Position numbers and translations under genes: made by a program
Part shown: in pieces, positions 6,422 through 42,961 of the stretch
How the letters are laid out: each line of letters begins with the position of its first letter
Numbering within the stretch: the first letter of the stretch is position 1
The notes under the pieces: generated by a model
Seen by the model: the letters and a program-made list of their open reading frames with translations, nothing else
Told to the model about the DNA's origin: nothing
Database searches by the model: none
From: Vermamoeba vermiformis
Lineage: Eukaryota
Assembly: GCA_045837725.1 (NCBI GenBank)
Contig: JBEWZL010000056.1
Location: forward strand, 1-64,000
Reading direction: 5' to 3'
DNA length: 64,000 nt

Positions 6422-9400
6422 TTAATTGGAGAAGTATTGCTTATACTTCGAAAGCCAAATCCCTTCATCCACGGGCAAGATCGGAGCACGCTTTCCATCT
6501 TGCTGAAAGAGTTGAGTGTTTAAGATGTCCTCGCGCTTAATGCCGTGATATCGAAGCGTAGATTCTGGGTTCGACTTCGTCAAATGAAAGATGCAAACAG
6601 CACGGAGTTCCGTTTTGTTTTTGCATGTTTTCACAAGCGTAGTAGATCTGATTATGTACTCGATAAGCTAATAATAATGCTTGGCGTTAGTAAATTATGC
6701 AAAGAAATGAAAAAGTCGCGCTCACCTTAATTTTCGCCTCTTGATCCAAGACGGAATCACTTTTGATTAGAACTGGCCCCGAAACGCCAAGAGCCATCAC
6801 AGCAGTCGGTTGCAACATCTCGGAAATGCGAACAAACTTGAAGACGCGAATGTCGCCATTTCCGGGGCTGGCCCAGAAAGAATCGTTCGAGATCAGAGGA
6901 AACATCTTCAAGCCAAGTCCCGCCAACAGCTGTTGAATTTTTCTCTTTAACCCAGCCACCGTAACGACATCTGCCGCGATATTGATGTTCGTTAAGTGTT
7001 GAATAGTTTGCAGAGATTTTGTCTTGCCAACTTTGATGTTTTTGTTGAGCTGCGCGATAACCTTTCTTTGCGCGAGTCGCCAGTGGTTGAAATAAACAAG
7101 AGTGATTGGACAACGCTTGAAGTGACGATTAAGATCGCTCGGAAATGCGCTCTCCAGTGCAGTTTCGATAGGGACAGCGTCTTTCACCCGCACCTGTTAG
7201 TGTCTATTAGAATCTATCGAATAGGCGAAGTAATTGACACTTACAATGCAATCAGGATGCTGAGCACTGAGCAAAGTATGAAGTGCATCACGTCCTTCAC
7301 GCAATGCGTTGACAAATTCTAGTTTCTGTGCAGTGCCGTGGAAGCCTGCCACCGCGCAAAGGGATGCAAACAAGCCGTTAACCAGATTCGCAGCAATTGT
7401 TCCACTGATTGACCTGTCACGCGGAACAACAATGCCACTGCAGGGGCGCAGGCAAAGTCGAATACGAGCGCTGAGCTCTTTCATTAGTTCCTTGTCGCTT
7501 GCGTGTTGAGGGAACAAGCTGTAAAGGAACTTCGGAGGCAAAGCCAGTATTAAGTCGTCGTTGACTTCCAAGTCAAGTAAATCGGCGTCGTGTTCGAGCT
7601 CTGCAGCGATGTCGTCCAAGGGCAATAAGCATTTCACCAGGTTGAAATTGTATGAGAAGTGCACGAAATCAGGGTTGAAATGAAGTCGCCCGTAAGTAAA
7701 GACACTCTCCCGAAGTTTGAAGCGGTTGAAAAGTTGCGGATGTGCCAGATTCACTGCCGCGCCACTCCAGATGAAGGTCAAGCAGTCTTGTAACAAGAAA
7801 GCAGCACGAAGTAAATCGTCGTTGTAGTCCAGTGCGTCCATATGGCGTGCTGTCAATATGGTTAGCGAGAAGATTACAAATACTGTATGTTTACCTTGGA
7901 CAACGTGATCCAAAAGAAGATAAAAGTAGTTAGCAATTCCCTCCGTGAATTTCTGTGGAAAAAGGCAGATCGTGTCGGTTAGCACAGTCTGAAGAGGGCT
8001 GCAACGCATCATTTCCAGAGGGATCAAGCCGCATTGATAAAGAGCTTTCAGCATGTTGAACAGTTCAGTCATGGCTTGACCAAGAGCTACCATCTCTTGG
8101 TACGCGAGAATTAATTGTTCCATCGTCGGGTTTTGTAGTGTAATTTCGATGCGCGGTCCATACGCCTTCTGCGGCATGATAGTAGAGTAAAGCTTTTGCG
8201 CACTTTTCCATTCTTTGCGCGAGCCGACGTCGTTAGCTTCCTCGTTAAGTCTAAAGCAATGTTAGCTAATACTACCAAAATTAAGGGCAAGAACCTACCG
8301 GGTGCGTAGTTTTTCGGAGATCCGAGCATCAGTACCAACGAGTTGCTTCACCTTTTCAACCGGGAAAGCTAATAACGCATGGTACGAGTTGGAGAATGGG
8401 ATGATATGACGATAATCATCGCTTCCTTTGTGGTACGCCTTAATGCACGACAGCAACAGATGTTCTTTGCCATACTCGATCATAGTACTGGCACAAGCGC
8501 CAATACCAAAGTTTGGATATTCGGTCGTTCTAAAAATAATAAATTAGATACTGGCATTCAGTCTAACCAAGCAATGCTTACTTTGGCCTGAGGTAGTCCT
8601 CCTCGTACTTGTTACTCCGCGCGCGCTGAAAGATGGTAGAGTTGCGTATCATTATGTTCTTTAGCGGAGAATTGATAGGATCGCTGAGAAGTGCGGTGAA
8701 GTTTCGCGTAAAGAACATTGTAACGTTGCTGTCATCGCCACACCTAACACATATGAATTGTGAGTGACACGTGTCAAATTGATTCTAAAAATAACTTACT
8801 TCAAATCCAGCCCGATATCTTGCATGTACGTTGCTTTGCTTCCCGGGGTGTGGTAGTACACCTTGTCTAAGTCGAACAATTCATTTAAATGTTCTCCCAA
8901 CAAACGTAGGTCTTCTTCAGATTTGATGGGATCTTTGCGACCAAAGTGCTGCAACACAAAGACAGGCTTGCACCTAAGTATTATATTAATAAAATATAAA
9001 ATGTTGTATCGTCAACGGTCATACCGCGGTTCTCTTTCGACAAGTTCCTCAATTCGGCGCTGGATGTAAGCAGATGTTTCGGGCAAAATCCTTGTTGTGG
9101 CTCCTGGATTCTTTGATTCGATAACAGCTTCATAAGGGAACGCAATTGGAGTTGTTCTGGCCTGCTCAGAATCGAGGACACCTGAGACGCGAGTTAATTA
9201 ACTTAGGTCTGAGATCTTGTTGTTGCAACGCTTACCAGCATACACGCATTCCTTAAAAAACTTCGTAATAACTTCACTAGATTGCTCCAAAGGGCAATCA
9301 GGAAATACCACGAACAACGGAATGTTACCGTCGACAAATCTGGTCCAATGAGTTAGTACTAACTCTCCTGTACTATTTAGAACTTACCCAAAACCAATAT

Positions 9401-10650
9401 TTGGGCATTTGTGCAATGCTTTGCCTTGGTGGCGCATCTTGCATGACGACAGGCGAACGCTGAAGTTTGGGCAAAATACCATCTCCCAGGAAACGCGAAT
9501 GAACTCGAGCGTATTGGTGTGGAAGCCAGTGAAATCCGTATCCAAGCAGAAAGACAGCTTGGTGTCCTTGGAGTTGGTCAGATAAAACCGAGGCCCGTAG
9601 TACGTGGATGACGTTAACCAATCAACGCTGTTGGTGAAGTCTTCACCAAAATCATCCCCATTCAGGATGATTCGCGCGTCATCGATCAAGTGCTGCGTGA
9701 ACAGATTTATCTTCAGAGCTCCGACCGATTGAGCCTGACGAATTTCGTCAAGAAGATTTTCGTCGTAAACAGTTCGCCCAGCATCATCTTGCAAAAGGTG
9801 CTCCCTAAATCGTAACATGTTAAAATCAATTTACGCGTGCCTAGCTGTTTAACTTACGATTCTATTTTCGGGAACAGCCGCATTTTTTCTTTTGGCGACA
9901 AAGCAAAGTACTCTTTCAAGTTTGCAAGTATTGCAACCACCCCGTCTCGCCTCAACAATCGCAGTAGCGCGTAGAACTCATCAGAAAAAACGTCAGGATT
10001 CTCGGGTCCCTCTTGTTCTTCTTCTGAAGAAGTTTCCAGCGCGGGAACGGGGCTGACGCACGCTGCATAGCGTCAGTTACGTACTAAAAGTGATAGATTA
10101 ACTCACCAGCAGAATCAGACGATACCGACGAAGGTGATGAGGGTGGCAAGGGTGAAGCACGAGAGGGAGGCGAATTCGGAGAGGTTTTTAAGTTATTTCT
10201 CGAACCTTGCGAAGGCATTAGTAAAATTGTAGACAAGCACACGGCATAAAATACTCACGCTGCGGCTTTGGGGTCACTAGCCAATCGTCCACGTCAAGTT
10301 CCGAGAGAGAGGAACCATGGCTGGGCGACGCGCAGTCCATAAAATCGTCGTGCACAAGTTGCGTGGGTTCTTCTGAGGAAAATTCCTCATAGACAGCGTG
10401 CGGGCACACGTTTTGGTCGTTAGACTCAAGGTCAAAGGCAGCGTTCAATAGTTTGTCGAATTTCTTGGTCGGCGAAAGAGCATCTGCGTTTATGATTAAT
10501 AAATAGCTATTTAGAAATAACTATTATTTACCATCGATCGAGCAGTTAAGAATTTGGTCGGTGATATCGCGCAAGCTAACTTTAGAAGCCTGTCGAAGGT
10601 TGGTCAATTCAACCAGTCTGGAAATTCTTCCGGATGCTTTCGAATATAAC
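6422..10650 (-). CDS. Large multi-exon orphan protein with Rep_trans-like motif triad (candidate tyrosine nickase/transposase)
   Basis: In-frame splice path through ORFs 10218-10448, 9384-9818, 8295-8483, 7197-8177, 6687-7193, 6422-6634; motifs QDIGLD (8805-8819), CIKAYHKG (YHK 8427-8435), PRIEITL (RIE 8145-8153). Confident it is a gene; function is inference. Confidence 0.65.
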
Positions 10651-13047
10651 TAAAAATCCGATTTGTTGTTTCTAAATCAGGAAACACTCTCGTCAAGTAC
10701 GAGAATGGCAAATTTGTGAAAATTAATTTCTTTTCAATGCAGCAAATTTCATAAAACTTTAGGATACGAAATTTCCATTTGCGAAAGAATTCGCGTCGAG
10801 CTGGAGAGGCGCCTGAATGACCCGTATCTTTCCCCTCGAAGTCGTCCGTCATTGCCGCAGCGAGCTTTGTAGCATTGAGATTGCCCAGTATTTTGAAAAG
10901 CTTGTCGTTGACTTCAATTTCAACCAGTCGGAGACCCAAGCCTAGCTTCTCCTGCACGATTGAAGCGCGAAAGTTGTTGCACAAAGTGCTGACGATTCCG
11001 CCAATGTGGAATAACTTGAGCTTCGTGATTATGTGAAGTTCCAATTGCGCTTGGCAGAAAACAGATAAGCCGTCCAAGCCATCTGCCAAGCTTTGTACCA
11101 ATGTGCCCTCGTCGACGAAAGCAAGGCTATGATCTGCGTTGAAGAACTTCAGGGCAGCAGAATCAGATCCTTCTTTGACACCCGGGATTTCAAGCTCCAT
11201 TGAATTGTTTACCAACTCGAATGAAGCAGCGGAGAACTCACAGTTACGAATTCCTGCGAGAATTTGGCTGGATGCTCCTGCAATAATGTTAGAATGGAGC
11301 TCTGACAAACAGAATTTTGGGTTGCGCATACCTGATTCGTGCATTATCAAAGTATCTCCAGTTGGCTTGGGCTTTAACTTGATATCAACCTTGACTCCAT
11401 CTCGTAGAGCGTATTGCTTGTTCTCAAAGGTCAGAGCGACGATTTTGACCCGATCACTGCGCGCATCCACATCAACACCAATGCCATGCACATGCAATCT
11501 CTCAAGATGCTCGCGCAAGGCAATGATGTATCGGTGGGTTCGCCTGGCAACGGAGTCGGGAGACATGTCGTGCTTGTCAAGAAATTTTTCTCGTCTTTCC
11601 AATTTTAGCAATTGTTCTAAATTTAGAAGTTAGACCGAAGAATGCAAAATTGTAACAAAATTGATGTTCCTTACCATCCATCCTTGACTTTCTTCCTGTC
11701 TTTCTTTTCTTGTGTTTTTTTTGTTTTTTCTTTGCCTTAGATCGAGTAGATTTTTTGGGGGTGTGTTCCGAACTTGAAGTTGGCGATTTCTCAATAACGA
11801 TGTCGGCTTTTCGATTCTTTTTGGGGGTGTGTTCGCTTTCTGTAAGAGTGTATTAATAAATTTTAAGCCTACTGGTTGAATTACTTACGGTTTTGGCTCT
11901 CATCTTCGTTTTCTTTACTTTCTGCACCGTCATTATGCCCTGATACACCTAATATATTAATATTAGCTCAGTGGATATTCGAATAAATGTACACAACTTA
12001 CGATCATCACTATGGGCAGATTTTGGGTCAGATTTTTCTTGATCTGAGTTTGGTTCGCGACGATGATCACCATTGCTGTTGCAATCGTCGATACCATCGC
12101 CAATGACGCTGTTCTCTTCCTCTTCGCCTTCTTCGTCCTCTTCGTCTTCGCTGTCGTCTTCTTCTTCTTCCTCCTCTTCTTGGAGGTCGTAGTCATTGTC
12201 ATCGGGAATAGGGACATCATCGGGGTCGAGGAACCTCATATCGTCAGAATCTGGCTCTTCATCCGGCTCGTGTAGATCAATCCAGTCTTGTAGCATGCCC
12301 TTGACGGACATTAAGGTTTCTTTCTCGCCCACAACCTCTTTTTCTCCGATTAGGCCGTCGGGCTCTGATGCATTCTTCTTTTGTGGGTCACTGACATCGT
12401 CGCACTCGTTGTCAGAGGCCTCACCGCTGCTAAGATCTAAAAAAAAAAATCACATCAGATATCGAAGCAAAATTTTGCTTAGGAAATTTTTAAGTACCTT
12501 TTATTTCATGTGTAGCTGCTCGCTTCGGCACGATTCTGGCTTTTTTAACTGTCTGTACGCAAGTTAGAATTTGGCGGGATGTAGTCTGCGTCGCTTACCT
12601 CACTGGCTGTGTTCGGTTCAGTAGAAACCGAAGTACCTTGAGCACCTTCTTGGCCTGAAGAGTTGGTTTCGGAATTATTCGGCGCGGATGATGTAGGTGC
12701 CTTCTTAGCGGAGGACTTAGGCTTCTTAGGCGAGGGCTTCTTGGGCGACGACTTCTTGGGCGAAGACTTCTTGGGCGAGGGCTTCTTAGGCGAGGGCTTC
12801 TTGGGCGAGGACTTCTTAGGCGAAGACTTCTTGGGCGAGGGCTTCTTAGGCGAAGGATTCTTAGGCGAGGACTTCTTAGGCGAAGACTTCTTGGGCGAGG
12901 GCTTCTTCGGTTCAAGTGTGGAACGCGTTGTGGCACGGGTGACTCGAGTCTTCGAATACAGGTCATTCATTACGGCAGCCATACAATCCAGGCTCGACTA
13001 TTCGCAAAATTAGTGCGATAAGTTTGCTCGGTAATGAGACTTACCAT
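10604..13047 (-). CDS. Orphan protein with 12 (P/S)SPKK-type repeats (histone H1-tail-like), acidic tract and ~330 aa globular exon; may be the N-terminal part of the 6422-10650 gene
   Basis: ATG|GTAAGT at 13047; ORFs 12545-12982, 11949-12332 and 10604-11611 flanked by canonical splice sites. Confidence 0.65.
12715..12908 (-). repeat. 15-bp coding tandem repeat with 60-bp higher-order period (SPKK array)
   Basis: GGCTTCTTAGGCGAG / GACTTCTTGGGCGAG units; translation [20 protein letters not shown]... Confidence 0.95.
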
Positions 13048-13196
13048 TTTAGTTGGAGGTTTGGGTTGGTGTTGGTGGAGTTACGTTTCGTATCTGTAGT
13101 AGTAACGATTTAAATTAAAATTACGCTAGCTTTAAAAAGAGCGGGCTTACGCGCCATTGGTCAAAAAAAGCCATTTTTTCTATATTTTTGTATCTT

Positions 13197-15772
13197 TTAC
13201 AAAGCAAAATTAGCGAAGTTTTCTTCCAGGGCTCGCTCAACGCTCTCTTCATCTTGCGTGTCGATAACCGAATCCTTGCGTGGAATGTAGTCGCGTTGGC
13301 CTGGTGTAAGCTGGTCAGGGATCACGGCAGGGTAGAAGTACGGTCCGTAAGTTCTTTCTAACTCAGCCGCTGAGGTTATCAGTAAGAACATTCCGTTGAC
13401 TTGCGAGGCGACCTGTACTCTCCATTCGCGCGAAAACAATGCTGGAGGATAAATAATCTGCGGGATGAGAGCTCGAGGGTGGAATCGAAATCTAATTTTT
13501 GTTAGTTTGATGTAATTACGAATTGAAATACTTACGGGCGGTGTGACAATATGTGTTGCATGATGTTGATCGTGTTGGGCAAACTTCGACCACCAACGTA
13601 CAACTTGGGACCAACAACACTAAGATTGATGGAGCGCGGATCCACCTCTTCGTGCAACTCAAGAGGAGAGATGAAAATGTTGACCAGGCATAGATGCCGC
13701 AAAGGTAGTTGATCGAGGTCGCGTAAGTCGATGTAGACTCCGGGGCAGTGTGATTCGAGTTCCAAAAGGAGAAATTCAGGCGGGAAGTTGACACCCGTCA
13801 GACAAATCTCCCAAGATGTTTTCGTATCGTCCTCTTTTGGAATTGGCAACCGCAAACCCATCAGGTTTGGTGCCAAGACAAAGAGCATATTGAGAACTTC
13901 GGCAACTGACGCGCCCATCGCTTGGAAAAGTGGCAGTACCCGTGCGTCGCTTGCCAAATGAAGAAATCGCAAGTTATGCCACTTGAAGGAGGGAAATGCG
14001 TAGACTGCCAGTGGCTGTACTATGCCCTTGATCGTCAAAGCGCGAAGAGAAGGGTAAAGTACAGGACATAGCTTTGCAACGAGTTCCGGATCCACGTCCT
14101 CGAAGCAAAGAACCCGTAAACGTTGAATGCTAGTGGTAACTATTAGTTATTATCATTGAATATTTGAATATAGTACTTACAACTGCACAGCATGTTTAGT
14201 CATGGACAAGCCCGTCGGGGCCAACTTCACGCGGACAAAGGAGAACTCTCGGCAAGCAAGTTGGTCGACAAGGTTGATTGTACCAAGCTCGGAGAGACTA
14301 ATAATACAATCCTCAGCTTGTAAACGACAAAATCGATCGCCTTGAGCATCCTGAAATAGGAGAGGTTTGCCTACTAAGCAAAGGCCGTGCACTAACGAAA
14401 ATTGGACTCGCGGGGTGACTGAACTTGGCGTTAGTAGGTTCAGTAATGAACTAAGCCTTACCTTTGAGCTGTATTGCGTGGGGAAGCGGTGGTTTAGCAG
14501 GGTTCGTGACGGTAGCAATCGTGTCTGTGAGTTGGATCGGCGAAGTGAGTTGGATGGGTGAAGCAGGATTGCTCGGGGAAGTCTGTTGAAGAATGGTCAG
14601 CCAAGGTCAAAGCCAGTGTGGAATACGTACCGGTATTTCGTCATTAAAAAATCCTGGACTTTGAATCGGCGATGCTGGTAAGGCGAACAAATCGAGCTCG
14701 ATCGCAGAATGACTGGATTCGTTGTCTGCGCTTGAGCCATCGCCGCCAACTTCTGTAGTTGCTTTCTCGGTTCGTCGCCGCTTAGTATCGGGCTGCGGCA
14801 GGTTTTCTCCACTTCTCTTATTTTTGTTGTGCACAGGATGTCGTGCTAAGAAGGAGGGAAGATGAAAGCACTCGTAGCCAACTCCGTTACAGCCAGGGAT
14901 GAAATCGATTTCCAGGTGTTTGTTCTGCTCGGGGACAGTCGCAGTTCCTATTGTTAACCGTAAGAAACTATTAGGCGAACAACGTTTGGATTTACCTTGG
15001 ATTGGCTCGACTGGGACTCGCACTATCGGTGTTTCCGCAGAGATGCATTGGGAGAAGAAAGGTACGTCGTATTGGCACTCGGCACAGCCAATTTCTTTGA
15101 GGAGCTCGTTTAAACTCTCCTGCGAAATCCAGTACTTTGGGTTGTACCGCATCGCGCACCAAAGTTTGGCACACTCTTCGTGAATACTTGACGTTGCGAT
15201 GTTGTTGACAATGCTCTTCGTGACGTTTGGCAGGCAAATGTTTTGTTGCGCAGACGCTAGGAGCTTCGGGAATCGCTGCATTAGCTCCATGAAGCCTTGC
15301 CACACCGGATTTGCTCCAACGACGGTACCAAGACCTTCGGCGACCAATTGGCGGTAGGATTTGAGCCACTTTGGATAAACCATGGTAGCTTCAGGGGTTG
15401 GGGGAAGCATACCGTGGAAGTCGAATACCACGTAGAAAAAAACGAAATCCGCTCGGTGACAAAACGGTGCATAGTACGGCAAGGACTTGAAGAGCTTCTG
15501 AACGTATTCGTTGACCGTTCTACTGGGCGTGGATCGATTACGAGCAAGAACCAAGAATTCTACGTAAGTTCTTATGTCCTCGATCACATTCGGGCTGAGT
15601 TGTTTCTTTTTCTCCTTGTAAAGCAAAAATTAGTACGGCGATAAATATACGATATATTCAATTTTTACAATATTATAAAGGCCAAGATTCGCTTGAGAAA
15701 GGGCGCTAAAGTGCAAAAATATTTTACCTTCTTTTTGATCGAATCCTCCGCCTTTCGGGAATTTCGATCCAT
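13197..15772 (-). CDS. Multi-exon orphan protein; C-terminal half leucine-rich-repeat (RNI-like)
   Basis: ATG 15772 (MDRNSRKAEDSIKKK), introns e.g. GTACGT..CTGAC..CAG at ~14630-14583; LRR-like segments LRVLCF, PSLRALTI, HNLRFLHL, PNLMGLRL, LRHLCL. Confidence 0.6.
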
Positions 15773-16477: not shown

Positions 16478-16912
16478 ACGCGGAGACGACCAGCGAGACA
16501 TTCTTATTTTGTAGATCGTCTCCACGTGGAGACGACCTGTGAGACTTTATTTTTTTTTAGGATCGTCTCCACGCGGAGACGACCTGTAGGACATCGTAGT
16601 TTTTTTAGGATCGTCTCCACGCGGAGACAACCTGCGAGACTTTGTTTTTTTAGGATCGTCTCCACGTGGAGACGACCTGCGAGACTTCGTAGTTTTTTAG
16701 GATTGTCTCCGCGTGGAGACGACCTGCGAGACTTTGTTTTTTTAGGATCGTCTCCGCGTGGAGACGACCTGTAGGACTTTGTTTTTTAGGATCGTCTCCG
16801 CGTGGAGACGACCTGTAGGACTTTGTTTTTTTAGGATCGTCTCCACGTGGAGACGACCTGCGAGACTTTGCTTTTTTATGAGATCGTCTCCACGTGGAGA
16901 CGACCTGCAGGA
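16478..16912. repeat. Tandem array: 9 full + 1 partial ~44-48 bp units, each an 18-bp palindrome CGTCTCC(A/G)CG(T/C)GGAGACG plus a T-tract
   Basis: Units start at ~16514, 16561, 16609, 16654, 16701, 16746, 16790, 16835, 16882. Confidence 0.95.
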
Positions 16913-17257
16913 CTTAGTGTTTTTGAGCATGTCATTCGGGGCGAGACTTCTTTTTTTCCCGTGGATAATTTTCCAAAGTAAAATTTTGCTTAAGTAAAAA
17001 ATGATCGGGGTCAGAAAATTCTTTATTTTTTTGAGGGGGTGTCAGGGCTAGCCCTATATGGGCAAGCCCACTTACATATATGAATAATTGATACTGTGCG
17101 TTTGCAATACAAATATCAAAGATGATAACAACGATTGCTGGTTTTGCTTGGATTTTTTGACTGGCAAATGGTTTTGCCTACCAAAAATTCACTAGCACAT
17201 GTACCTAACTCGTCATCAAGCTCCTTGTTGATTCTTTGCACTAATCTGTAATGGGAC

Positions 17258-17600
17258 TGGATTCGATCGTGCACTAGTGCTGCAGCAGGCAGGCCTCTAT
17301 GGCCGGCCATAAAGAGAAAATAAAAAAATTGCCCACAACTGGATTCGAACCTGCTCCAGTGCTGCAGCAACTCTATGGCCGGCCATAGAGGGAAAATAAA
17401 AAAAAATTTGCCTGCAGCTGGATTCGAACCTGCGCCTTTGAGGCAAATAGCAGAACTCTATGGCCGGCCATAAAGGGAAAATAAAAAAAACTGCCTGCAC
17501 CCGGATTCGAACCTGCTCTGGTGCTTCGGCAACACTATGGCCGGCCATAAAGGTAAAATAAAAAAAGTACCCACACGCACGGGGAATTGAACCTCACTGG
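17258..17600 (-). repeat. Array 1 of tRNA-derived B-box/palindrome units (~4 units)
   Basis: Plus strand TATGGCCGGCCATA + A-tract + TGCC..CTGGATTCGAACCTG, i.e. the Pol III B box GGTTCGAATCC followed by a T-run on the minus strand. Confidence 0.9.
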
Positions 17601-17682: not shown

Positions 17683-20600
17683 CTATTTGCCAGAGTCCAC
17701 TCTTCTCTTCTTCGGAGAATTCTGAGATCCTTCTTCCTCGTCGCCACCTTTTTTGCGCTTCTTGCTGTTGCTTGTTGAACCTTCCTCTTGGTTGTCTTCA
17801 CCACTTTTGGCATCCTCTGAAGATTCATCATCCGAAATGACGTGCTTTGCCTTTGGATCGCTCTTCTTTGCTTTCTCCTTTCCTCCACTTGTTTGACTGC
17901 CTTGGGTTCCTTTGATAGAGTCACTCTCCATTTCTTCATCACTTCCTTCCTTCTCACGAGCCGAATAGTCTTCGACAACAACCTCTTTGTCTGAATCCTC
18001 ACTTGCTGCACTGATTTCTTCAACAGAAGCTTGATTAGCTGCATCAGAAGGTTCATATTCTTGCTCCCCAGGAAATTTGATCTTGAAGCGTGTGTATAAA
18101 GTAGATGGTTTGTGATCAACAAACTGAAGGTCAGGAAGTGCAAAGACTTCGGATTCCTTTGTCTGGGCCAATCTTTCCTTTACTCTTTGCAAGCACTTAA
18201 ATGCATTAGTTTCATGCAGTTCATTTTCGAATTTGACTGCTGCAGAGAGTCTGGTGTGCGTGCTGCAAGAAAAATTAGGTGAACAGTTCTGAATTTTATA
18301 GCGTGCAAACTTACTTGATAATTGCATGAATAACATGCAAGGGGTTAACCCCCTTTAGAACACTCATTGCGTATCCATCATTTGAGGTTGAACTGACAAA
18401 AGTGCAGTAGAAGCACTTGATTGTGTCCAACGAGGAGCCAAAGCATGCTAGCATGATAAGACCGTGGCAGGTAGTGCACTCTGTGCAAGCCTCAAACTCT
18501 CCAAAATGTTCTGGGATTTCTTTGACCATAAATCTCTGGAAGCCAGGCAGAAGGATTTCTTTGATATTTTTTGAAACAGATTCCACGCTTCCAAATGAGT
18601 AGGTCCTTGTTTTAAGAAGGAACCAAAGAGAATCTTGATACGAGACTTGCCCTGCAACCCAAACAGCATAGAGAGTATGCCATTCAGCAAAGAGATATTC
18701 AATCAACATGCCACTCTTTGCAGTTTCCTCTACGGCAGATTTTGTGTCAAGCAGATGGTCAGGAATTACCCAGTAGCGGTAAGCGTAGTTAAAGGGAACA
18801 TAGAGGCTCTGTCCTGGTAGTTGCCGCACATAGATGAAAGGGTTAGCTTTTGCCTCTTCTTCATCGCTCGATAAATCCCCTGGTTAATGTTTAGTTTGGG
18901 TTCAAGGAATAGCGGGCTACATACATTTGGGAATTCTAAAAGTGAATTTCTTCTTGGAAAAACACGGGCTTAACACCCAATAAACAGATCCGCGGAAGTT
19001 GCTTCGCAAGTAAAAGAAGCGCTGACAAAGCTAAACAAAAATTAGATACGCTTGCAATGTGCAAATTACTTACTGAGTAAGGAATGTGCCAATCACTGTA
19101 GTAGTAGGCTGTTATTGCATAGCCACCAACGCAGTGTGCCCCAAATACTTCGTGCAAGCAATTTCTTTCAATTGAAATATCCTTGGGCATTGGAGCCCAG
19201 TAGTTTGCAGCATCAACGTTGGGGTTGAAGACCAATGGATTAAGGTGAACAGGATGCCGAACTGATATTGGTATTAATATCTGTGTATCTATTTCTTGAT
19301 CATCATTTTGTGTACTTACTTGAAGCCAATCCGAGACCACGTCGCACAATACTCTTTGCCAAAAGCTTCTTCTTTTTTTTCTCATTCCAGGTGAGATTTG
19401 GCGAAAGCACCATGACCATTTTATCTGCAGCCTTAAAAATCATGCTGCAGAAAGGTAAGAAAAAGCTTATGTAACCCTGTGCGAAATACTTACGAATGCT
19501 CGTGTTGGATCTGGTGCATTTGACTGCAAACTTCATTTGGTGGCTGAAACAAAGCAGGTTTTTTCACCTCATCAGCATTAGCTTGAAGCACTTTTGTTTC
19601 CCAAGTAAACTTCCATTGGGCAATTGCTTCTATTAGGCAACTATGCTCCAAAAACTTTTTCACTGGTCGTGCTGTCTTGTGGACTCTTGCGCTAAAGTCT
19701 TCACCAACATGATGAATAGTCAGAGGATACTTAAGCAACTCCACCATATCTGTGAGAGTTGAGATGCCAAAGAGCACTGTATTCTCGAACTCTTTTTCCT
19801 CGTCAAATTTGCTCACTAATTCAAAATACTTATTAAAAATTCAATCAAACATTGAGAGACCTACCAGCAGCCCTAATTGCCAACACCAACGAAATATTGT
19901 GCTGCTTGCCTTCCTGCAGGTGATGTATTGTTGCAGCCCAATGCACTGCTTCCAGCAGGAGATGCAACTCTTCTGGTTCATTTGGAGCAACCAACTTCTG
20001 AATGTTCCGAAAGCCAACACAGTAATAATCATCAATTATCATTGCAGAGTACAGTTGACGAATCTTCGCATTGTATGCAGCTTTGGGAGGAAGGATGGCT
20101 TAAATTTACTGATTAGCAAATGCTTTTAAAATAAAAAGACCTATTCTTACCAATGACTGGGCATTTGTTGGAGTCATTGTAAACCAATTTGAAGTTCGAT
20201 GGCGAAAGTTCATGAGAGTTGACAGTGATGATAACTCCACTACCCTTTTCCACCACTTTAACAGCCTCTTTGGCATTTGACAGTGAGTAGTTGGTGTAGC
20301 GCTCAACTACCCATTTCTTCACTGTTTCTTCCCAATTTGGCAACTGACTGAGGACTGCATTAAACTCTGCCTCATAGCAATAGTGCATGTCCTTCTGAAA
20401 CAGCTTCTCCTTCATGTGCACATCAAAAAACTTGGCGCATTCTTGCTTCAATGCTGTATCCCATTGGGAGATGGGCAGTTTCAATACCTTTGCACAGGCC
20501 TCGCCAAGCAGCATTGCACCACGCCAGATGATAATTTGATTCCTCCAATTTGGTTCTGGAGGCATGTCTGCAGAACTGAATTAAGAAATACTTTTGGAGA

Positions 20601-21907
20601 TGTTTCACATACCATGCATTTGCCCCTGCGATAGACGGACCTTTTTGTTAGTCCCAAGCACTTCTTTGCTCTTAGCCATCCCTGAAATTACCAGTTATTA
20701 GATAATTTTGTACAACTTTTCAGCATCCAAACAGTATACTTACACCACTGCTGGTATTTCACAGTGCTTTCAATCATTCCTTTTAGAAACATTAACTTGA
20801 CGTCGTTTGGAATTCCTTGAAGGGCAACTCCTAGCATGTTCTTCACTGTGAAGGGTTGCTTTTTACTATAGTAAAATATAACGGATTAACATGGATTCAT
20901 TTGATTAGTGGAATACTTACACATTTGAGAAGATTTTCGTCAGAGTGAAATGCGTCGTGAGGATGGAGGAAAGATCCTTGAAAGTTTCTCTAGGCAAATT
21001 TTTAAACAAAATAGTGCAATCCCCTGTTCACAAGCTGTGTTAGTGTTGCTCCTTGCATCAAAGTCAAAATTCTTACCAAGCTTGTGAACAGCAAGCAGTT
21101 GGGATGCCTCCTTGGAAAAAGCAGCCTTTTGTTCTTCTGAAGCTGTTTCATAAGTCACGTTGGCAGCTTTGGCTAGCAAGTCGCACATTTGATCAATCAA
21201 AATAACCTTGTCCATTAGGTTAAGCTCCAGAAAGTTCTCTGTGTCGTTTTTCTGCAAGTCCATGCCAACACGAAACAAATCCTGAATCAAAAGTTTAGAT
21301 CAAGCGGATCAAAACTATTTCTACTTACTGGTTCATCCTTGGGAACTAGCACTTTAACTTGAAATGCTTGCAGCAGCTCCCACAACATGAAGTAGTGCAC
21401 TACAACAGCACGGTGCTGCCCTAAAAGTTCAAAGGTTAATCAACATAAAACAAGGTTGTGATCGCATACCAATGCAAACAGCATAGCTGATTTCCCCTGT
21501 TTGCTTGTGCTGAACAGGCACAATTGTTGGTGCTCCTTGGCTAGTACTCCACGGAGTGCAGTTCACCATCAAATTTCGCACATGATCTAAGGACAGGGCA
21601 CGGATGTTGAGACTGCATCCAGAAAGTTAGTTAATACAAACAAATTGAATTAGCAACTTACGCTCGTCCTTTGACAATACTATCAGCAGCAAAGATTGGC
21701 TTTGACATTGTGACTGTTGTTGCACCGTTTTGCAAGTCCTCCTGACAAAATGCAACATTGAAGTGCGGCAACCTAAACAGATATTAATAATTAATTAAAG
21801 TTTTTCAATTTCACTTACTTGAAGCGATTAGGCCGGTTGCAACAAGGATTTGCACAGGGCTCTGTTGTTGGAGTAGTCAAAGTCGTCACCACAGAATAGT
21901 TCTCCAT
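17683..21907 (-). CDS. Multi-exon protein: ParB-like N-terminal domain, degenerate JmjC domain, Cys4 zinc finger, charged tail
   Basis: Spliced NIRALSLDHVRNL..PTIVPV..YAVCIGQHR (21612-21410); VFNPNVD..W..NCLHEVFGAH..SDWHIPYS|RFFYLRSNFRGSVYW..FIYVRQLPGQSLYVPFNYAY (19240-18780); CTTCHGLIMLAC..KCFYC (18480-18404). Central exons not fully resolved. Confidence 0.65.
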
Positions 21908-21976
21908 ATCCAGCTCAAAAGTCTGCAAAAAAAAAAAATGATTATCCGTGCATGGAATAAAATGACTATAGGTCGA

Positions 21977-22457
21977 GGCAGGACTCTATGGCCGGCCATA
22001 AAAGAAAAATTAAAAAAAAAAACTGCCCACACCTGGATTCGAACCTGCTCCAAGCACTGTAGCAGGCAGGACTCTATGGCCGGCCATAGAGGAAAAATAA
22101 AAAAAACTGCCTGGGAAAAAAACTGCCCGCACCTGGATTCGAACCTGCTCCAGTGCTTTGGAAGGTGGGCCTCTATGGCCGGCCATAAAGAAAATAAAAA
22201 AAATTGCCTGCAGCTGGATTCGAACCTGCGCCTTTGAGGCAAATAGCAGAACTCTATGGCCGGCCATAAAGAAAATAAAAAAAAACTGCCTGCACCTGGA
22301 TTCGAACCTGCTCCAAGAACTGCAGCAGCAGGACTCTATGGCCGGCCATAGAGGAAAAATAAAAAAAACTGCCCGCAGCTGGATTCGAACCACAATGACA
22401 GGTTCGAGTCCCACTGTGGCAATTGATTTTTTTTATTTTTGTTATGGCCGGCCATAA
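21977..22457 (-). repeat. Array 2 of B-box/palindrome units (5 units plus an inverted terminal half-unit)
   Basis: Palindromes at ~21988, 22075, 22174, 22255, 22338, 22443; B boxes at ~22035, 22135, 22216, 22298, 22381; opposite-strand B box at ~22401. Confidence 0.95.
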
Positions 22458-23066: not shown

Positions 23067-24287
23067 ATGAACTTTGCTGACAAAATAATTATGCTCTACG
23101 CAGGTGAGTATTATTATATTTTTGTTCTGTCATCTGTCTCGGTGAATCCTGACATCTGGCATTTTTCAGGCAAACCTCCAGGATATAAACCAACTGAGGA
23201 GGAGAGTATGTACTTATCTTGTTATTGACACCTGTTTTACTAATTCTACCTCCTGTAGTAAAGAGGGTGAATGCGCTTGCCCGTGCCAAGTCCAAATCAA
23301 AGAAGCAGTCTGAAGGTAATACTGTTGAAATCTTATCGTTCTTAGTCATTCTAACTGTTAATAATAGAAACTTCTTCTGAGAGTGACCTCAGTGACCGGT
23401 TTTCCCCACAAGGAGGTCCCACGAATGCTATTGATGTGGATGAGGTGCACGACACAGCTTCTATTCCCAACCCTCCAGCCTCCCCTGCGCAATCTCCTCC
23501 CCTCATTTTTACTGCAAATGTCAATAGCTCCAAATTAATTGCGGAAATGCAGAAAAAATTCACCAACTTGGAAGTTATTGACTTGCAGTAAGTACAAATA
23601 TTGTTAAATTGAATGTATGCTAATTGCTTGTTTTAGTGATCCAAATGGAATTTACCACGTACTGCAGCCATACGCTATGCAAAGCATTGTGCAAATTCCT
23701 GTAAGTATTTCTTTTAGTTTTTTAATGCAATGCAATAGACACAAGGCTAACCGCACAAATGACAGGTAATTAATTCTGCAAGGATTTCTGTTACTGTTCA
23801 AGGGCTTTATGAGTGCTTCAAGTTGTTTAAGCACAATCCAAACATCGACGTGGTTATGTTGCAAAAACATCAAGAAAAGATCGTGCGCAAAGAGCCAGCA
23901 AAAGATTTACTTGGTTGGCAATTGGTAAGTAACTTTATTTTTACTTCAAATATAAGCTTATATTTAAATTACATGACTTTACAGGGGGAAAAAAGCACAA
24001 CCTTAGTTTCTGCCGAGATTGCGCACCACCTGTTCCACATTTTGCCATACTTATGGGTGATGGAGAAATCAAAGCCAATTTGCTTGAAGTTTCTTCGTGA
24101 TTTTCTTAAGGATGGAAAAAGGCTCCTGCTACTTGACTCTGCCAACAATTTTGATATCAACGACTATTCCTCCCCTGTTTCCGTTGCGACTCTCGTTAAA
24201 TTAATTCTTGAAGATCAGGCACAAGCAATAATAGAGGATATCAAGAACACATATGACAATGTAGATCTGAGCATGTATTCTCTGTAA
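23067..24287 (+). CDS. Multi-exon orphan protein of unknown function
   Basis: Consistent in-frame path MNFADKIIMLYA|GKPPGYKPTEEE|IKRVNALARAKSKSKKQSE|ETSSESD..|..|..GEKSTTLVSAEIAHHLF..SMYSL* with canonical introns. Confidence 0.65.
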
Positions 24288-24514: not shown

Positions 24515-24830
24515 TATGGCTGGTCATAAAGATAGACATTATGCCATGATAAACTTGCAATTGAACCCAGGACTTTGGCAGGAGTCAATTTATGGCTGGC
24601 CATAAAGTAAAAATAAGATATTTGCCCACACCTGGAATTGAACCTGCGCCAGTGTTGCAGCAACTCTATGGCCGGCCATAGAGGGAAAATAAAAAACTGC
24701 CCACACTTGGATTTGAACCTGCGCCTGGATTCAAACCACGATGACAGGTTCGAGTCCCACTGTGGCCATACATTTTTTTTATTTCTGTTATGGCTGGCCA
24801 TAGACAAACAACGAAATTGCCCACACCATG
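24515..24830. repeat. Array 3 of B-box/palindrome units, eroded
   Basis: Variants TATGGCTGGTCATA, TATGGCTGGCCATA, GGAATTGAACC, GGATTTGAACC, GGATTCAAACC; same inverted hub as at 22381-22457. Confidence 0.85.
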
Positions 24831-25108
24831 CTTCTCAGGCCTAATTTGTCACCACACCATTTACAAGCTTCATTTTAATGCAGCTTTTATTAGATGAAAA
24901 TCAAACCAACTACACTAAGGCAATATTAAACACTTTGCCTGCAACGCAGTCAATGCATCACTTGCGTAAGCCACAAAGCCATCTGCAAAAATCCATCAGC
25001 CCAATCACAGTATGTAAGTACTGTCAGAGCTCGCTTTGACACGGAATTCAAATTGGTCACTCCAGAACTACCCCAGTGCATCTGTGCCATGGTTGCAAAG
25101 TTAACCCC

Positions 25109-27987: not shown

Positions 27988-30887
27988 TTAATCGTCAACA
28001 TCGCTACCATCATCGTCGTCATCACCTTCTGATGCCTCGCGGAGCCATGTCAAAAACTTCTCTGATTGTTTGTAGAAACGTTGATCGGCCTCATCTGCTC
28101 CCTTCATTTCGTCGGCCCACTGCAAAATAGAGTCTTCGTCTAATACTTCAGCATCAAATAGAGTATCCAAGATCAATTCAAAAGCTTTTGCTAATTTCTC
28201 GTTTCCTGCTTCTTCGCACAGATCTTGAATCTTGAAGATCAACTCGGTCTGATCTTCGGTGCTATCAATAAACTTGAGCAATAGAGGTGCCCACTTCTTG
28301 AGGATCTTGACCAACGATGAGTTGTAATTCTTCTGGTCCACCAACTTGACCAAAGTGGAGAAGATCGCAGTCAACGTATCCAAGAACGAGCTGTTGTAAG
28401 CGAACTTGAGGCCGTTAATTTCCAGCACTACGTTGTCGATCGAGTGGTTTTCCGCGACAGCACGTTCAACTGTTTCTTGCATTTCGTCGTTGAATCGTTG
28501 CAGATCTGACACGTACTCCACTGACTTGCCTCCACCAGCCTGCAAAACAGATTAGTTCAAGTTGATAAGAATCATAATCGCTAGTACCTTGAGCCGCTTG
28601 CTTTGAGTGCGCTTCAAGTTGGACCTTCGTTCAGCCTCATCACCCGAATCTTCCGCGCTCTTGTCATCGGCAGCATCACCGCTGTCAGCACTGTCTTGGT
28701 TGAAGTTGAAATCACCGTCGTCATCGCTAGGCTCGTAGCTGCCGTCCTCTTCCAGTTCTTCAGAGGAGATCGACGACTCGTCGGTTTCTTCTTGATCTTG
28801 CACGTCATTGTCTTCGTCGACTTGAGTAACGCGCTTGGTTGTAATGAATAGCTTGGTGACATCTTCTGAGAGCACGAGATCGGTGAATCTGAAACGAAAT
28901 TAGTTATTTTACTGTCAGAAACGAGTAAATCATGTCGACGTACCTCAGGGATTGAGTGAGATCAGCAGCGGGGTCGCGAGGAGTGTAGCTCTTCAACAAC
29001 AATTCACGTTCAACTTCGCACCACTTGTTGCCCTTGCCATCCTTGCCGAGGTTAATAGCCACAACGCGAGGAGGTTGTTGAGCAGCAGGGCTGACAGGCT
29101 TGCTGGTCAGCTTAGTGTACGGAGGCAAGCGCACGCCTTCACCAACAACGCAGTTGTATGCGAGCAAGCAGCCCTTCTCGATAACAGCTCCTTTCTTAAC
29201 GCAGCTGTTGGAGCAAATCAACGAATCGCTAATCTTCACATTGTCTTCAATTACTACATTGTCCCACAGGTAGCAGCCTTCAAGACGCACGTTTGCACCA
29301 ATCTTGCAGTTTTTGCCGATGACTGAATGCGAAATAAACGTGTTGTCACCAATGTCTGTGTTATTGCCAACAACAACGTCTTCTTCGAGAGTGGAAGACC
29401 GTGACAAGTTGACGTTGTTTTCTTTGTAGATCGAAGGTCTGCTCAATGAGTAGCTCGTGGAACCGCCCAACAACAGGTTGTTGTCGGGAACTAACGGGTA
29501 CGTCCATCGTGAAATAATGTCTCGTGAAATCAAGTTGTATGATCGCAAGCAGTTAGCGCGAGCAGCATAGTACTGGTTGGTAATAATGTGCGTGAAAATC
29601 TTGGCGTTGAAAATCTCTTGTTGCACGACACCTTGAATGAACTGCTCGAGTGTTAAGTAGTCAAAGTTGTCTTGGAACTGGAACAACACTTCAGTGCTGC
29701 AAATAGCAATGCGAGTGTCGACCAAGTCATTGCGGAACTGAATTCCCTCTGCAAAGTTAAGTGAGTATGTTAAATAGGCCTGGACGTGGCGGCCATCGTA
29801 TAAATTGGCCTTCGCAATTATAAGAACTTACTGGGGTGATCAGCAAACAATTGCAAGTCAATGGTGGCCTTCTTATCGACAGCCTTGTGTTCATAATAGA
29901 CCAGCTGACCAGACTCGGGGTTGATGGCAATGCACGTATCATCAGGATGAGTAACTAATTGACCGACTTTCATGGGCACGGGCTTGCTTGAGATTTCATA
30001 GCTCTCTTCGTCATTCGAATCAGCATCTTGATCCTCGTCGTCGTCTTCTGTTGCAACAGTAGCTGCGGCGTCGGTGTTGAATCGCTTGAGCACGCGACCA
30101 ATCTTGGCAGAAGCAGCACCTCGACGGTTTTGCTTGAACAAGAGTGTCATAATGGCCTCCTTGTCCTTCTCCTTGCGTGCCTGGTGAGCAGCTAACAAAG
30201 CACGAATGTTGACGTTGCTGACGACGTCGGAAGTGACCAAAATGAAGTCTGAGCGCAATAATTGATTCTCGTACATTTCACGCATGCACGCGCCAATATT
30301 GTTAGCTTGGCGAGTGACGCACTTCACTGACATGTGTTGTTTGGACCAGTTGCTTTGGCTGCACGCATGCATTAATATAGAGATGTAAATTGACAGATCG
30401 TCTCGACTTACTCGATATATTTTTGGATCTGATCAGAATGGGACGAGCAAAATACAAACACTTCCTCTACACCACCACTGGCAAGAAATTCGAGCGTATA
30501 CTCGATCATTGGCACGTTGACCAACGGAAATAAGGCCTGATCAAATAAAATATTTTAATACTCTGACAGATTATCGTAAGATTAGCACCAAAATTTGAAA
30601 ATAATTATATTGTCAATAATTTAATTAGATTGGGCGGTAAGAAGCAATTATTACGTTGCACAAAGGACGAATCTGATTTTTTTTCCAAAACACGAACAAT
30701 TGGCAACACAAAGGCATGGAATATTATTTTAAAAATGAATAAATAACTAAATATATTTTGCAGATTAAATACATACTCTTGGAGCATCCAGTGAGATCGG
30801 ACGATAAAATTCATCAAAGCTATCAGCAATGACCAACGCTTGAATCTTCTGCGTTGCTTTAATTGACTCCTTAGTTTTCTTGGCCAT
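27988..30887 (-). CDS. EIF2B5: Translation initiation factor eIF2B epsilon subunit
   Basis: QALVIADSF..RPISLDAPR nucleotidyltransferase-like domain, hexapeptide beta-helix, SRDIISRWTYPLVPD, C-terminal W2 domain (LEINGLKFAYN; FLTWLREA). Confidence 0.95.
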
Positions 30888-31240: not shown

Positions 31241-33091
31241 ATGAGCAAAACCTTCACTAAAGAGGAAGTCGCCAAGCACAATAAGGCCGAAGACTGTTGG
31301 ATTATTGTCCACAATAAAGTCTACGATGTAACAAAGTTTTTGAGCGAGCATCCTGGAGGAAAGAAAGGTACCGGTCATTTCGCTCAAATTACCCTTTCAC
31401 ATATGAAAAAAATCGACCATATAATGAAGTAATATTGTCGAGGATATTGCAATTTGTAGTTCCCATTTTTGATCGGATTTACTCAAATATATTTATTTTT
31501 AGTCTTGGTCAATGTCGCTGGTAAAGACGCCACAAAGCAATTTGACCAATTCCACAAGGGAGATATCTTGACCAAATACGGCCCTCAATTGTTGATTGGT
31601 GAGATCGGAGCTGCCGCTCACGAGACCAAGCAAGCCAGCCCTGCCGCTGGTCGCACTTTTGGTGATATGGTTCCTTATGGTGATCCCAACTGGTACCAAA
31701 ACTGGCACTCCGCGTACTACAACGAGTCGCACAAGAAATTCCGCGCTGCTGTGCGTGCCTTCGTTGACAAGGAAATCACTCCTTTCTGCCACGAGTGGGA
31801 CGAGAACAGAAAGATGCCGCAAGACATCTACCGCAGATTGTACGAGGCTGGTATCTTGCCCGGCACTGTCGGCATGGTGCCTTGTAAGTAATGCGAGACA
31901 CGCTTGCCCGGGCAACTTACTAACAGTTGTGACTAAAGGGCCCACTGATTACGTCGGCACCAACATTGCTGGTGGCATTAAGCCCGAAGAATGGGACTCG
32001 TTCCACGAATTGATTTTGTTGGACGAAATGTGCCGCTGCGGTTCTGGTGGTGTTATCTGGGGTACGTTGCTAATGTTCCTAGCTGAAAAGATTCTGACAT
32101 TACTGCTCCAGGTCTGTTCGGTGGTCTCGCTATTGGTTTGCCTCCTGTCTTGCACTTTGGCTCCAAGTACTTGCGTGACAAGGTCGCCGGTCCTTGCATG
32201 CGCGGTGAAAAGACCATCTGTCTCGCCATTACTGAGCCCTACGCCGGCAGTGACGTCGCTGGTCTTCGCACTGAAGCCAAGAAGACTGCCGATGGCAAGC
32301 ACTACATTCTCAACGGTGAGAAGAAGTGGATCACCAACGGTGTCTTCTCTGACTTCTTCACCGTCGCTGTTCGTACCGGTGGTCCTGGTATGGGTGGTGT
32401 CTCGTTGTTGTTGGTCGAGCGCAACATGCCTGGCGTCACCACTCGTCAAATGAAGTGCACTGGTGTCTGGCCCTCGGGTACAACGTACATCACCTTCGAA
32501 GACGTCAAGGTTCCTGTTGAGAACTTGGTGGGCAAAGAGAACGAAGGCTTCAAATATATAATGAGTAACTTTAACCATGAGGTACGTGCTTCGTTTCAAA
32601 GAGCAATAGGTTAATTTTATCTTCAGCGTTGGGGTATTGTCGTTCACGCCACTCGTTTCTCGCGCATCTGCGTTGAAGAATCCTTCGCTTATGCCCACAA
32701 GCGCAAAGCCTTCGGCAAGCGTTTGATCGATCAGCCTGTCATCCGCTACAAGTTGGCTCAAATGACTCGTCACGTTGAGGCCACGCAATCTTGGTTGGAA
32801 GCTGTCACTTACCAAATGACCAAGATGACCCACAAGGAACAAGCTGCTAACTTGGCCGGTCCCATTGCCTTGTTGAAGGCCCAAGCCACTCAAACCTTCG
32901 AGTACTGCGCTCGTGAAGCCTGTCAAATCTTTGGTGGTCTCGCTTACACCCGTGGTGGTCAAGGTGAGAAGGTCGAACGTCTCAGCAGAGAAGTGCGTGC
33001 CTACTCTATTCCGGGCGGTTCTGAAGAGATTATGTTGGACCTGGGTGTGCGTCAAGCCATGAAGCAATACGAACAAGTGGCCAAGTTGTAA
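31241..33091 (+). CDS. Cytochrome b5 domain - acyl-CoA dehydrogenase fusion
   Basis: [63 protein letters not shown]. Confidence 0.95.
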
Positions 33092-42549: not shown

Positions 42550-42961
42550 TCCTGCTGATAACAATAAATAAATATAGACCTTCGATGTGGCTTCTAGGTC
42601 CTTGACGTATCGAATGTTCGAGAAATTGACAAGGTTGGTTTTCAAGAAAGAGCGGGACTGACGACTTGACATGTGGATTTTTTGAAAATAATTAATCTCA
42701 ATTTTACCACATCTTACAGCACTACAGAAATCATATTCTTGCTTGCTTACTATGATCTGTAAAAGGATGGATGTGACTGAAAAGTCTACGTTACGCTTGT
42801 TCGTCATTACGGTCGTTCCAATTATGCATGATAGGGCCATATCAATTTAGGAATAATTTCGACGAAATTACAATAAGTTGAGAAAAGGCGTCAGACCACG
42901 TTGGTTCAAAAGTGTCTCTCGTCTAAATTCATTTATTTTTTCTTTTACAGCGAGTCACACC

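Follow-up and report, generated by a model that had tools for sequence, protein, structure and literature searches.

PHF2 and Epe1 carry a tyrosine at the distal ligand position of the JmjC domain, JARID2 is inactive, and in the KDM6 enzymes (UTX/JMJD3) the JmjC domain is followed by a helical linker and a C-terminal zinc-binding domain. In S. pombe, Epe1 keeps ectopic heterochromatin in check for the most part without need of its JmjC domain (PMC6576747). The ParB-CTPase fold, whose eukaryotic form is sulfiredoxin (Srx), occurs fused to many lineage-specific domains (PMC12704722); neither JmjC nor cupin nor dioxygenase is mentioned in the main text of this survey of such fusions, dated 2025. 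Among phages, thymine dioxygenases of the TET/JBP family can depend on a ParB-like activator that is a separate protein (PMC13229309); we found no other described functional link between the two folds, and a literature search for a ParB-fold/JmjC-fold fusion, judged by title or abstract, returned no paper describing one. Here we describe a gene of Vermamoeba vermiformis that a preliminary description, made from the letters alone, had taken for such a fusion: a ParB-like domain joined to a catalytically degenerate JmjC domain and a zinc finger. The gene occupies positions 17683..21907, minus strand, of a 64,000-nucleotide stretch (GenBank assembly GCA_045837725.1, contig JBEWZL010000056.1, positions 1 to 64,000; hereafter the window). 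What is firm is that the gene is well formed, single-copy, and taxonomically restricted, and that sequence methods cannot assign its product, which we tentatively read as a nuclear protein that would act without catalysis through a JmjC/cupin-type barrel.

An orphan 16-exon gene

The coding region was established by reading the sequence by eye, by a path search, and by a codon test. It consists of 16 exons with 3471 coding nucleotides and a single terminal stop, giving a protein of 1156 residues, and its ATG (21907-21905) and TAG (17685-17683) are the exact ends of the feature under study. No long bacterial-type open reading frame (ORF) runs across the region, which reads instead as a split eukaryotic gene: all 15 introns are GT-AG, 43 to 62 nucleotides long, mostly with GTAAGT-type donors. 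The path search started from the ATG, admitted every donor-like site (16 were found) and introns of 40 to 99 nucleotides, and yielded the 16-exon solution; the retained model was checked by hand, uses all 15 strong donors, and stops at the natural stop codon. On the minus strand, exons 1 to 4 lie at 21907-21819, 21772-21662, 21612-21470, and 21420-21329; exons 5 to 8 at 21281-21077, 21023-20921, 20865-20744, and 20681-20613; exons 9 to 12 at 20567-20151, 20098-19865, 19815-19494, and 19444-19320; and exons 13 to 16 at 19261-19074, 19030-18925, 18879-18315, and 18262-17683, stop included. Two other models were rejected: one lacking the intron at 19319-19262, with another acceptor around exon 12, preserves the frame and leaves a strong GTAAGT donor unused, and one that splices beyond the stop codon needs a weak donor overlapping that stop.

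Codon usage agrees with this model. The codon table came from eight ORF stretches in other parts of the window, of which five cover genes matched by Pfam (eIF2B-epsilon, an acyl-CoA dehydrogenase, and an endonuclease/exonuclease/phosphatase-family protein), and the log-likelihood of the model frame was +0.16 bits per codon against -0.38 and -0.44 in the other two frames. The model frame was the best in 15 of the 16 exons, the exception being exon 1, and GC content was 0.44 in exons and 0.31 in introns. By every sequence-internal criterion, then, this is a real gene, intact and protein-coding, with host-like splicing and codon habits.

The strings quoted in the preliminary description were all found in translations of the exons. 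NIRALSLDHVRNL and YAVCIG lie in exon 3 and QHR starts exon 4, the string YAVCIGQHR appearing only once the 49-nucleotide GT-AG intron between these exons is removed; exon 13 holds VFNPNVD..W, NCLHEVFG, and the WHIP site, exon 14 holds NFRGSVYW, and exon 15 holds VRQLPGQSLYVP and a Cys cluster. It was likewise borne out that the "ParB" end and the "JmjC" end belong to one continuous, phase-consistent gene. No intron between them exceeds 62 nucleotides, so there is no room for a second promoter, and the gene structure, with its consistent phases and short introns, predicts that both halves are carried in one transcript.

Relatives were sought in several collections. A phmmer search of exon 15 (187 residues, comprising the JmjC-like end and the Cys cluster) against 1,835,955,588 representative proteins returned one match, the gene's own ORF P0001, a 172-residue call of the same gene with 99% identity in a cluster of one member. 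A word-index search among longer proteins matched none of 340 candidates for exon 15; exon 9 matched one of four candidates, again the gene's own ORF (P0002). Exon 9 had no relatives among prokaryotic genome contigs, none were found for the gene in JGI metagenome contigs (protein scan and exact 27-mer) or in IMG/VR viral contigs, and the window holds no second copy. The protein collection does include some kin or paralogue of this genome's genes, since the ORF next to this one (14607-15629) has a relative in it, P0004, at 32% identity. The 1156-residue protein thus looks like a lineage-restricted orphan without detectable relatives. A mobile-element origin was considered and rejected: the satellite arrays that flank the gene (described below) are direct, with no terminal inverted repeats, the gene is single-copy in the window, no other family member in the protein collection and no PHROG match were found, and there are 15 spliceosomal introns. 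Because it is single-copy, intron-rich, and without terminal inverted repeats, we do not regard it as a transposon gene.

A candidate JmjC-like core followed by a Cys cluster

The candidate JmjC/cupin-like core, as placed by hhalign, spans 18770..19091 on the minus strand (residues 735 to 812, exons 13 to 15). W735-H736-I737-P738 stands at the expected H-x-D/E position, G754-S-V756-Y-W758 at the expected G-x-K-x-W position, and L796-P-G-Q-S with V803-P-F-N-Y-A-Y809 at the expected distal-His block. Searches of the curated libraries and the Protein Data Bank (PDB) were made exon by exon, and the spliced protein was compared with home-made profiles of prokaryotic family members, scored against composition-preserving shuffles; the motifs had first been picked by eye, so the shuffle P values are optimistic. 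The JmjC profile drew on 28 of 30 loci from 301 genomes, all bacterial, two with internal stops having been dropped, and the Cupin_8 profile on 25 of 30 loci. hhalign produced a 178-column colinear alignment with the three JmjC blocks in order and plausibly spaced, WHIP falling on H-x-D, GSVYW on G-x-K-x-W, and VPFNYAY on the distal-His block; it is not significant. The sole outside evidence for JmjC is the ESM Atlas language-model look-up of exon 15, whose ten best family-bearing matches were all JmjC, Cupin_8, or JmjC_2 clusters, with a top score of 0.82.

A number of results weigh against this assignment. With exons 13, 14, and 15 put one at a time through Pfam hmmscan, neither JmjC (PF02373) nor Cupin_8 nor JmjC_2 matched at E values up to 10, and phmmer of the same exons against the PDB gave no JmjC chain; the 59 residues that bear the blocks had 18 weak PDB matches, to terpene/prenyl synthases and antibody chains. 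NCBIfam, PADLOC, and PHROGs searches of single exons returned neither ParB nor JmjC. For the JmjC profile against spliced residues 641 to 870, hmmsearch scored -0.9 bits, with 323 of 3000 shuffles as good, and hhalign with 28 domains gave P 0.079 and a probability of 0.7%, with 10 of 116 shuffles as good; the Cupin_8 profile scored -1.2 bits over the same residues, with 371 of 3000 shuffles as good. Both hmmsearch matches cover the PG..L.VP block only. The Atlas score of 0.82 falls within a range also attained by one in three shuffled proteins, and the recognition value of 1659 was below the tool's mark; the look-up may have keyed to the same PG..L.VP motif, and we treat it as a lead only. AlphaFold2 on exon 15 alone, with no alignment, gave a mean predicted local distance difference test (pLDDT) score of 33.7, with no residue above 50. 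The blocks quoted in the preliminary description are present and ordered, but their resemblance to JmjC beyond chance was not confirmed (P ~0.09-0.12).

The profile itself was checked against known structures. A 20-sequence JmjC profile matched JMJD5, FIH, TYW5-like, JMJD7, JMJD6, KDM7, PHF8, MINA, NO66, and PHF2 chains in the PDB at E values from 7e-29 to 7e-7. Since it reaches those families, the bacterial profile is competent, and the present protein is far more divergent than they are from each other. The profile contains bacterial domains, without those of the KDM4/5/6 type from eukaryotes, and is not a fair test of KDM kinship.

Within the nonsignificant hhalign alignment, the positions of the Fe(II) triad read H736, P738, and Y809, and the invariant 2-oxoglutarate (2OG)-binding Lys (K28 of the bacterial alignment) falls on V756 of G-S-V-Y-W. 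The broken iron ligands claimed earlier are thus read as described, with the 2OG position in addition, but the alignment that places them is not itself significant. Matches fall on structural residues (G, W, P, G, L, P) and replacements on the ligand positions, which would be the pattern expected of a pseudoenzyme. If the barrel exists, only the first His of the usual ligands survives, and the protein is therefore not an oxygenase. Whether a JmjC/cupin-like barrel is present here, as a dead JmjC domain, is to our minds an evenly balanced question.

The nearest comparison is with Epe1, PHF2, and JARID2. The candidate blocks share the order and spacing of their JmjC domains, with H736 kept and Y809 at the distal His position, and this protein, like them, is probably nuclear. 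The acidic ligand (P738) and the 2OG Lys position (V756) are lost here as well, however, and single-exon Pfam searches found no PHD, ARID, chromo, or other reader domain; nor are there relatives. PHF2 is reached by the general JmjC profile at an E value of 5e-7, whereas this protein is not.

A Cys6-His cluster at 18404..18487, minus strand (C907-x2-C910-x2-C913-H914-x6-C921-x9-C931-x2-C934), follows the JmjC-like core by about 100 residues and is a candidate zinc-binding module, although Pfam zinc-finger models did not match exon 15. The KDM6-type layout proposed earlier has a parallel here in that two CxxC pairs in a Cys-rich cluster follow the core at about 100 residues; the cluster is Cys6-His, however, whereas that of KDM6 has four Cys, and there is no similarity to any PDB chain, KDM6 chains included. 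The C-terminal tail (17686..18096, minus strand) is acidic and Ser-rich, with 24 Asp or Glu among residues 1001 to 1100, and is probably disordered. It carries two basic clusters, KKRKK at 1131-1135 and KKRR at 1148-1151, which we take to resemble nuclear localisation signals; together with the acidic Ser-rich tail, they suggest that the protein is probably nuclear. Elsewhere in the protein, a central region of about 480 residues (19494..21239, minus strand, exons 5 to 11) matches no family, AlphaFold2 on exon 9 alone without an alignment gave a mostly helical, low-confidence model (pLDDT 41.4), and four Cys lie at residues 18 to 39.

The ParB/sulfiredoxin-like candidate and competing readings

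The N-terminal candidate segment (21240..21693, minus strand) covers residues 57 to 159, divided by three introns among exons 2 to 5 into pieces of 30 to 68 residues, and includes HVRN at residues 77 to 80 and G115-Q-H-R118. A profile of ParB_N (PF02195) was built from 58 of 61 fetched prokaryotic domains, three of ambiguous strand having been dropped. Against residues 40 to 150 its best hmmsearch match, at residues 97 to 119, scored 2.5 bits, with 51 of 5000 shuffles as good (101 of 2000 for the whole protein), and it consists of a strand, a turn, and a strand followed by G-Q-H-R, at the place predicted beforehand. hhalign over residues 40 to 200 aligned 87 colinear columns, extending over the whole ParB_N domain, with P 0.04 and 7 of 150 shuffles as good. 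G115 and R118 align with the invariant G56 and R59 of Box II (G-x-x-R) in the prokaryotic alignment, a four-residue motif that is weak alone.

Other results do not bear this out. Pfam, NCBIfam, PADLOC, and the PDB gave no ParB match for exons 2 to 5, and hhalign of exon 3 alone against the ParB_N profile gave a probability of 0.25%. No ParB came up when exon 3 was looked up in the Atlas, and no more than 2 of the 10 best family-bearing matches shared a family; the list ran from unnamed bacterial and phage clusters (0.91 and 0.88) to primase- or relaxase-type domains, with DUF6371, DUF3991, TraI_C, and primase N-terminal domains. DndB and GmrSD_N are ParB-clan families with a D-G-Q-H/Q-R motif; against residues 40 to 215, 1463 of 3000 shuffles did as well as the protein with the DndB profile (11 of 12 fetched), which aligned GQHR only, and 2054 of 3000 with the GmrSD_N profile (15 of 17 fetched). 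With three ParB-clan profiles tried, P ~0.01 becomes ~0.03, for a motif chosen by eye. In a control, a 26-sequence ParB_N sub-alignment strongly reached ParB, Noc, Spo0J, SerK, KorB, SbnI, and plant Srx, and it gave human sulfiredoxin 14 to 16 bits, far above this protein. Of the ParB R..GxHR pattern claimed earlier, GQHR does fall on Box II after a strand, but a resemblance beyond chance was not confirmed (P ~0.01-0.05). Compared with ParB-CTPases and sulfiredoxin, the segment shares G-x-x-R after a strand-turn-strand and the weak colinear alignment, but it has no significant profile match, and neither a helix-turn-helix nor a dimerisation domain was recognised. These sequence comparisons leave a ParB fold at the N terminus rather unlikely in our estimate, and the JmjC-like reading is the likelier of the two. 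Sub-threshold Pfam lines were taken as noise or chance: DUF5545 for exon 3 (E 0.13-0.15), which matched 0 of 101 genomes and 0 of 14 controls and for which no literature mention was found, and DnaB_bind (0.16), TMEM40 (0.059), TfoX_N (0.053), ArsC (0.12), and RacA (0.04).

The reading that we prefer, with somewhat less than even confidence, is that of an orphan 16-exon gene for a lineage-restricted protein acting in the nucleus without catalysis through a JmjC/cupin-type barrel. Gene structure, codon usage, and the lack of relatives are observed; the rest we infer. Residues ~680-830 would fold as a JmjC/cupin-type beta-barrel that keeps its structural glycines, prolines, and aromatics and, of the metal and 2-oxoglutarate ligands, only H736, the others reading P738, V756, and Y809. 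The barrel would be followed by the Cys6-His zinc module and then by the acidic tail with its two basic nuclear-import clusters, and the protein would serve as a reader or scaffold, binding a partner such as a histone tail or some other protein of chromatin without demethylating it. The ParB/Srx-like look of the N terminus, GQHR with its preceding strand, is unproven and would not be needed. An anti-silencing decoy function, raised in the preliminary description, would be pure conjecture. Three RNA sequencing (RNA-seq) runs with the same species label, in which the organism's presence is unconfirmed, gave 1, 0, and 0 reads over 4401 bases, counts that speak neither for nor against expression of the gene.

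The absence of any curated-library or PDB match for ParB or JmjC, the P values above 0.05 in every targeted JmjC-clan test, and the complete lack of relatives could be expected if the product belonged to neither family, being a fast-evolving, lineage-specific protein in whose 1156 residues GQHR, WH.., PG..L.VP, and the CxxC pairs had arisen by chance. The neighbouring ORFs at 6.6-15.6 kb are also domainless (none of six over the Pfam cut-off), and the gene may sit close to a chromosome end, a setting in which genes of this kind are frequent. Yet JmjC, named in advance, is what the language-model look-up of exon 15 returned, and the best matches of four independent home-made profile runs fell on the predicted blocks in the predicted order. 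We give a chance origin of all these motifs somewhat less weight than the preferred reading. At the other extreme, the full architecture, a ParB-CTPase/sulfiredoxin module, a linker of ~480 residues, a dead JmjC domain, and a zinc module forming a nucleotide-gated chromatin binder, would account for the ParB_N match at exactly residues 97 to 119, the 87-column alignment, and the invariant Box II Gly and Arg, and the JmjC leads from the Atlas and hhalign hold for it too. The link between a ParB-like protein and an Fe/2OG dioxygenase acting on DNA in phages gives it a described parallel (PMC13229309). The library and PDB results for exons 2 to 5 tell against it, as do the Atlas look-up and the alignment of exon 3, the DndB and GmrSD_N shuffles, the score of human sulfiredoxin, and the corrected P value, and we consider it improbable.

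Should both domains be real, the pairing of a ParB-like nucleotide-binding domain with a jelly-roll Fe/2OG-type barrel that acts on chromatin or DNA would be common to this protein and the phage TET/JBP systems; there, however, the two are separate proteins and the dioxygenase is active, whereas here they would be fused and the barrel would lack ligands. Against a TET/JBP (PF12851) profile, 2000 of 3000 shuffles did as well as the protein, a comparison underpowered by its 2 usable sequences of 3 matches in 401 genomes. The most specific form of the two-domain reading, a nucleoside triphosphate-gated chromatin reader or clamp that combines a ParB/Srx nucleotide switch, a ligand-less JmjC barrel, and a zinc module and has no described counterpart, is rated slightly lower. 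It would echo, in a single polypeptide, the phage pairing of activator and dioxygenase (PMC13229309), and an anti-silencing or boundary role would fit the structurally unstable, possibly subtelomeric region. If true, the two-domain reading would be the first ParB-fold/JmjC-fold fusion that we found in print, would bring the ParB nucleotide-switch fold into eukaryotic chromatin biology, and would represent a new kind of pseudo-demethylase. A different account holds that the gene is silent or decaying with its frame still intact, or that the true transcript differs in its first exon or has an alternative exon 12. Exon 1 is indeed the only exon in which another frame outscores that of the model, the path search also offered an alternative around exon 12 that keeps the frame, and a telomere-type junction lies at 20558 in exon 9 (see below); against this, 3471 stop-free nucleotides over 16 exons are unexpected of a decayed gene, all 15 strong donors are used, and codon usage is host-like, which makes it the least probable of the explanations weighed.

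Flanking repeats, neighbourhood, and variants

The gene is flanked by arrays of one satellite in the same orientation. The downstream array (17295..17566) has a 77-nucleotide tandem unit, the upstream array (21976..22457) has units of 81 to 99 nucleotides and starts 69 nucleotides upstream of the ATG, and a third array (24580-24834) lies 2.2 kb beyond the upstream one. The unit contains the palindrome ATGGCCGGCCAT and, on the minus strand, a tRNA T-arm-like GGTTCGAATCC followed by a T-run; a 15-mer that includes the palindrome was found at 12 sites (23 matches counting both strands), where 0 were expected. ARAGORN found no tRNA in the flanking satellite and no Rfam family was matched; the units resemble tRNA-derived units of the RNA polymerase III type. 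Between the gene and its downstream neighbour, a separate tandem array at 16478-16924 consists of about 10 copies (86% matches) of a 45/92-nucleotide unit built on the inverted repeat GGAGACGA..TCGTCTCC.

On the lower-coordinate side of the gene, large ORFs on the minus strand occupy 6687-15629 in pieces of 148 to 354 residues. None of six has a Pfam family over the cut-off, and no PHROG was matched. A BEN domain was seen below threshold in the ORF at 14607-15629 (E 0.0015), and the region includes a Ser-Pro-Lys-Lys repeat stretch at 12545-12997 and an acidic stretch at 11949-12449; these ORFs could be further lineage-specific nuclear proteins. Pfam-recognised genes in the window are DUF6939 at 23763-24287 (plus strand), eIF2B-epsilon at 27988-30432 (minus strand; LbH_EIF2B, 1.6e-39), acyl-CoA dehydrogenase at 31460-33091 (plus strand; 1.9e-32), and the endonuclease/exonuclease/phosphatase-family protein at 42857-43918 (plus strand). 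Ordinary housekeeping genes begin at ~28 kb, and the recognised genes identify the window as ordinary nuclear DNA from a eukaryote whose introns are short.

Near its left end, within 300-2000, the window carries degenerate telomere-type repeats (303-333); beyond these come short "gggcacctag..ttccgtg" repeats together with a G-rich repeated block exceeding 1 kb (GC 0.55, GC skew +0.33). The window contains no perfect telomere array; the left end is suggested to be subtelomere-like. In one DNA sequencing run (X1), a contig begins at 20558, inside exon 9, preceded by 26 loose letters of telomere-type repeat (CCCTAA x4). Summed contig depth in this run is 687 before 20558 and 898 after it, climbs to ~1018 once a second loose end (21043) is passed, and reaches 1557-2124 past 21392. 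Some chromosome copies may end inside the gene and be telomere-healed, or the contig may be chimeric; two further loose ends recorded alongside it consist of sequencing adapter. Together, the repeats at 303-333, the 20558 junction, and the depth steps suggest a location near a chromosome end, with structural variants.

A one-base length variant in a T-run at 21927, 20 nucleotides upstream of the start codon, was seen in one X1 contig (depth 606 of 2166). Runs X3 to X16, metagenomes from water, aquifer, soil, biofilm, and sludge, contained 5 to 30% of the gene's sampled 31-mers, a hint of a possibly wide distribution of this organism, or of strains close to it, in soil and fresh water.

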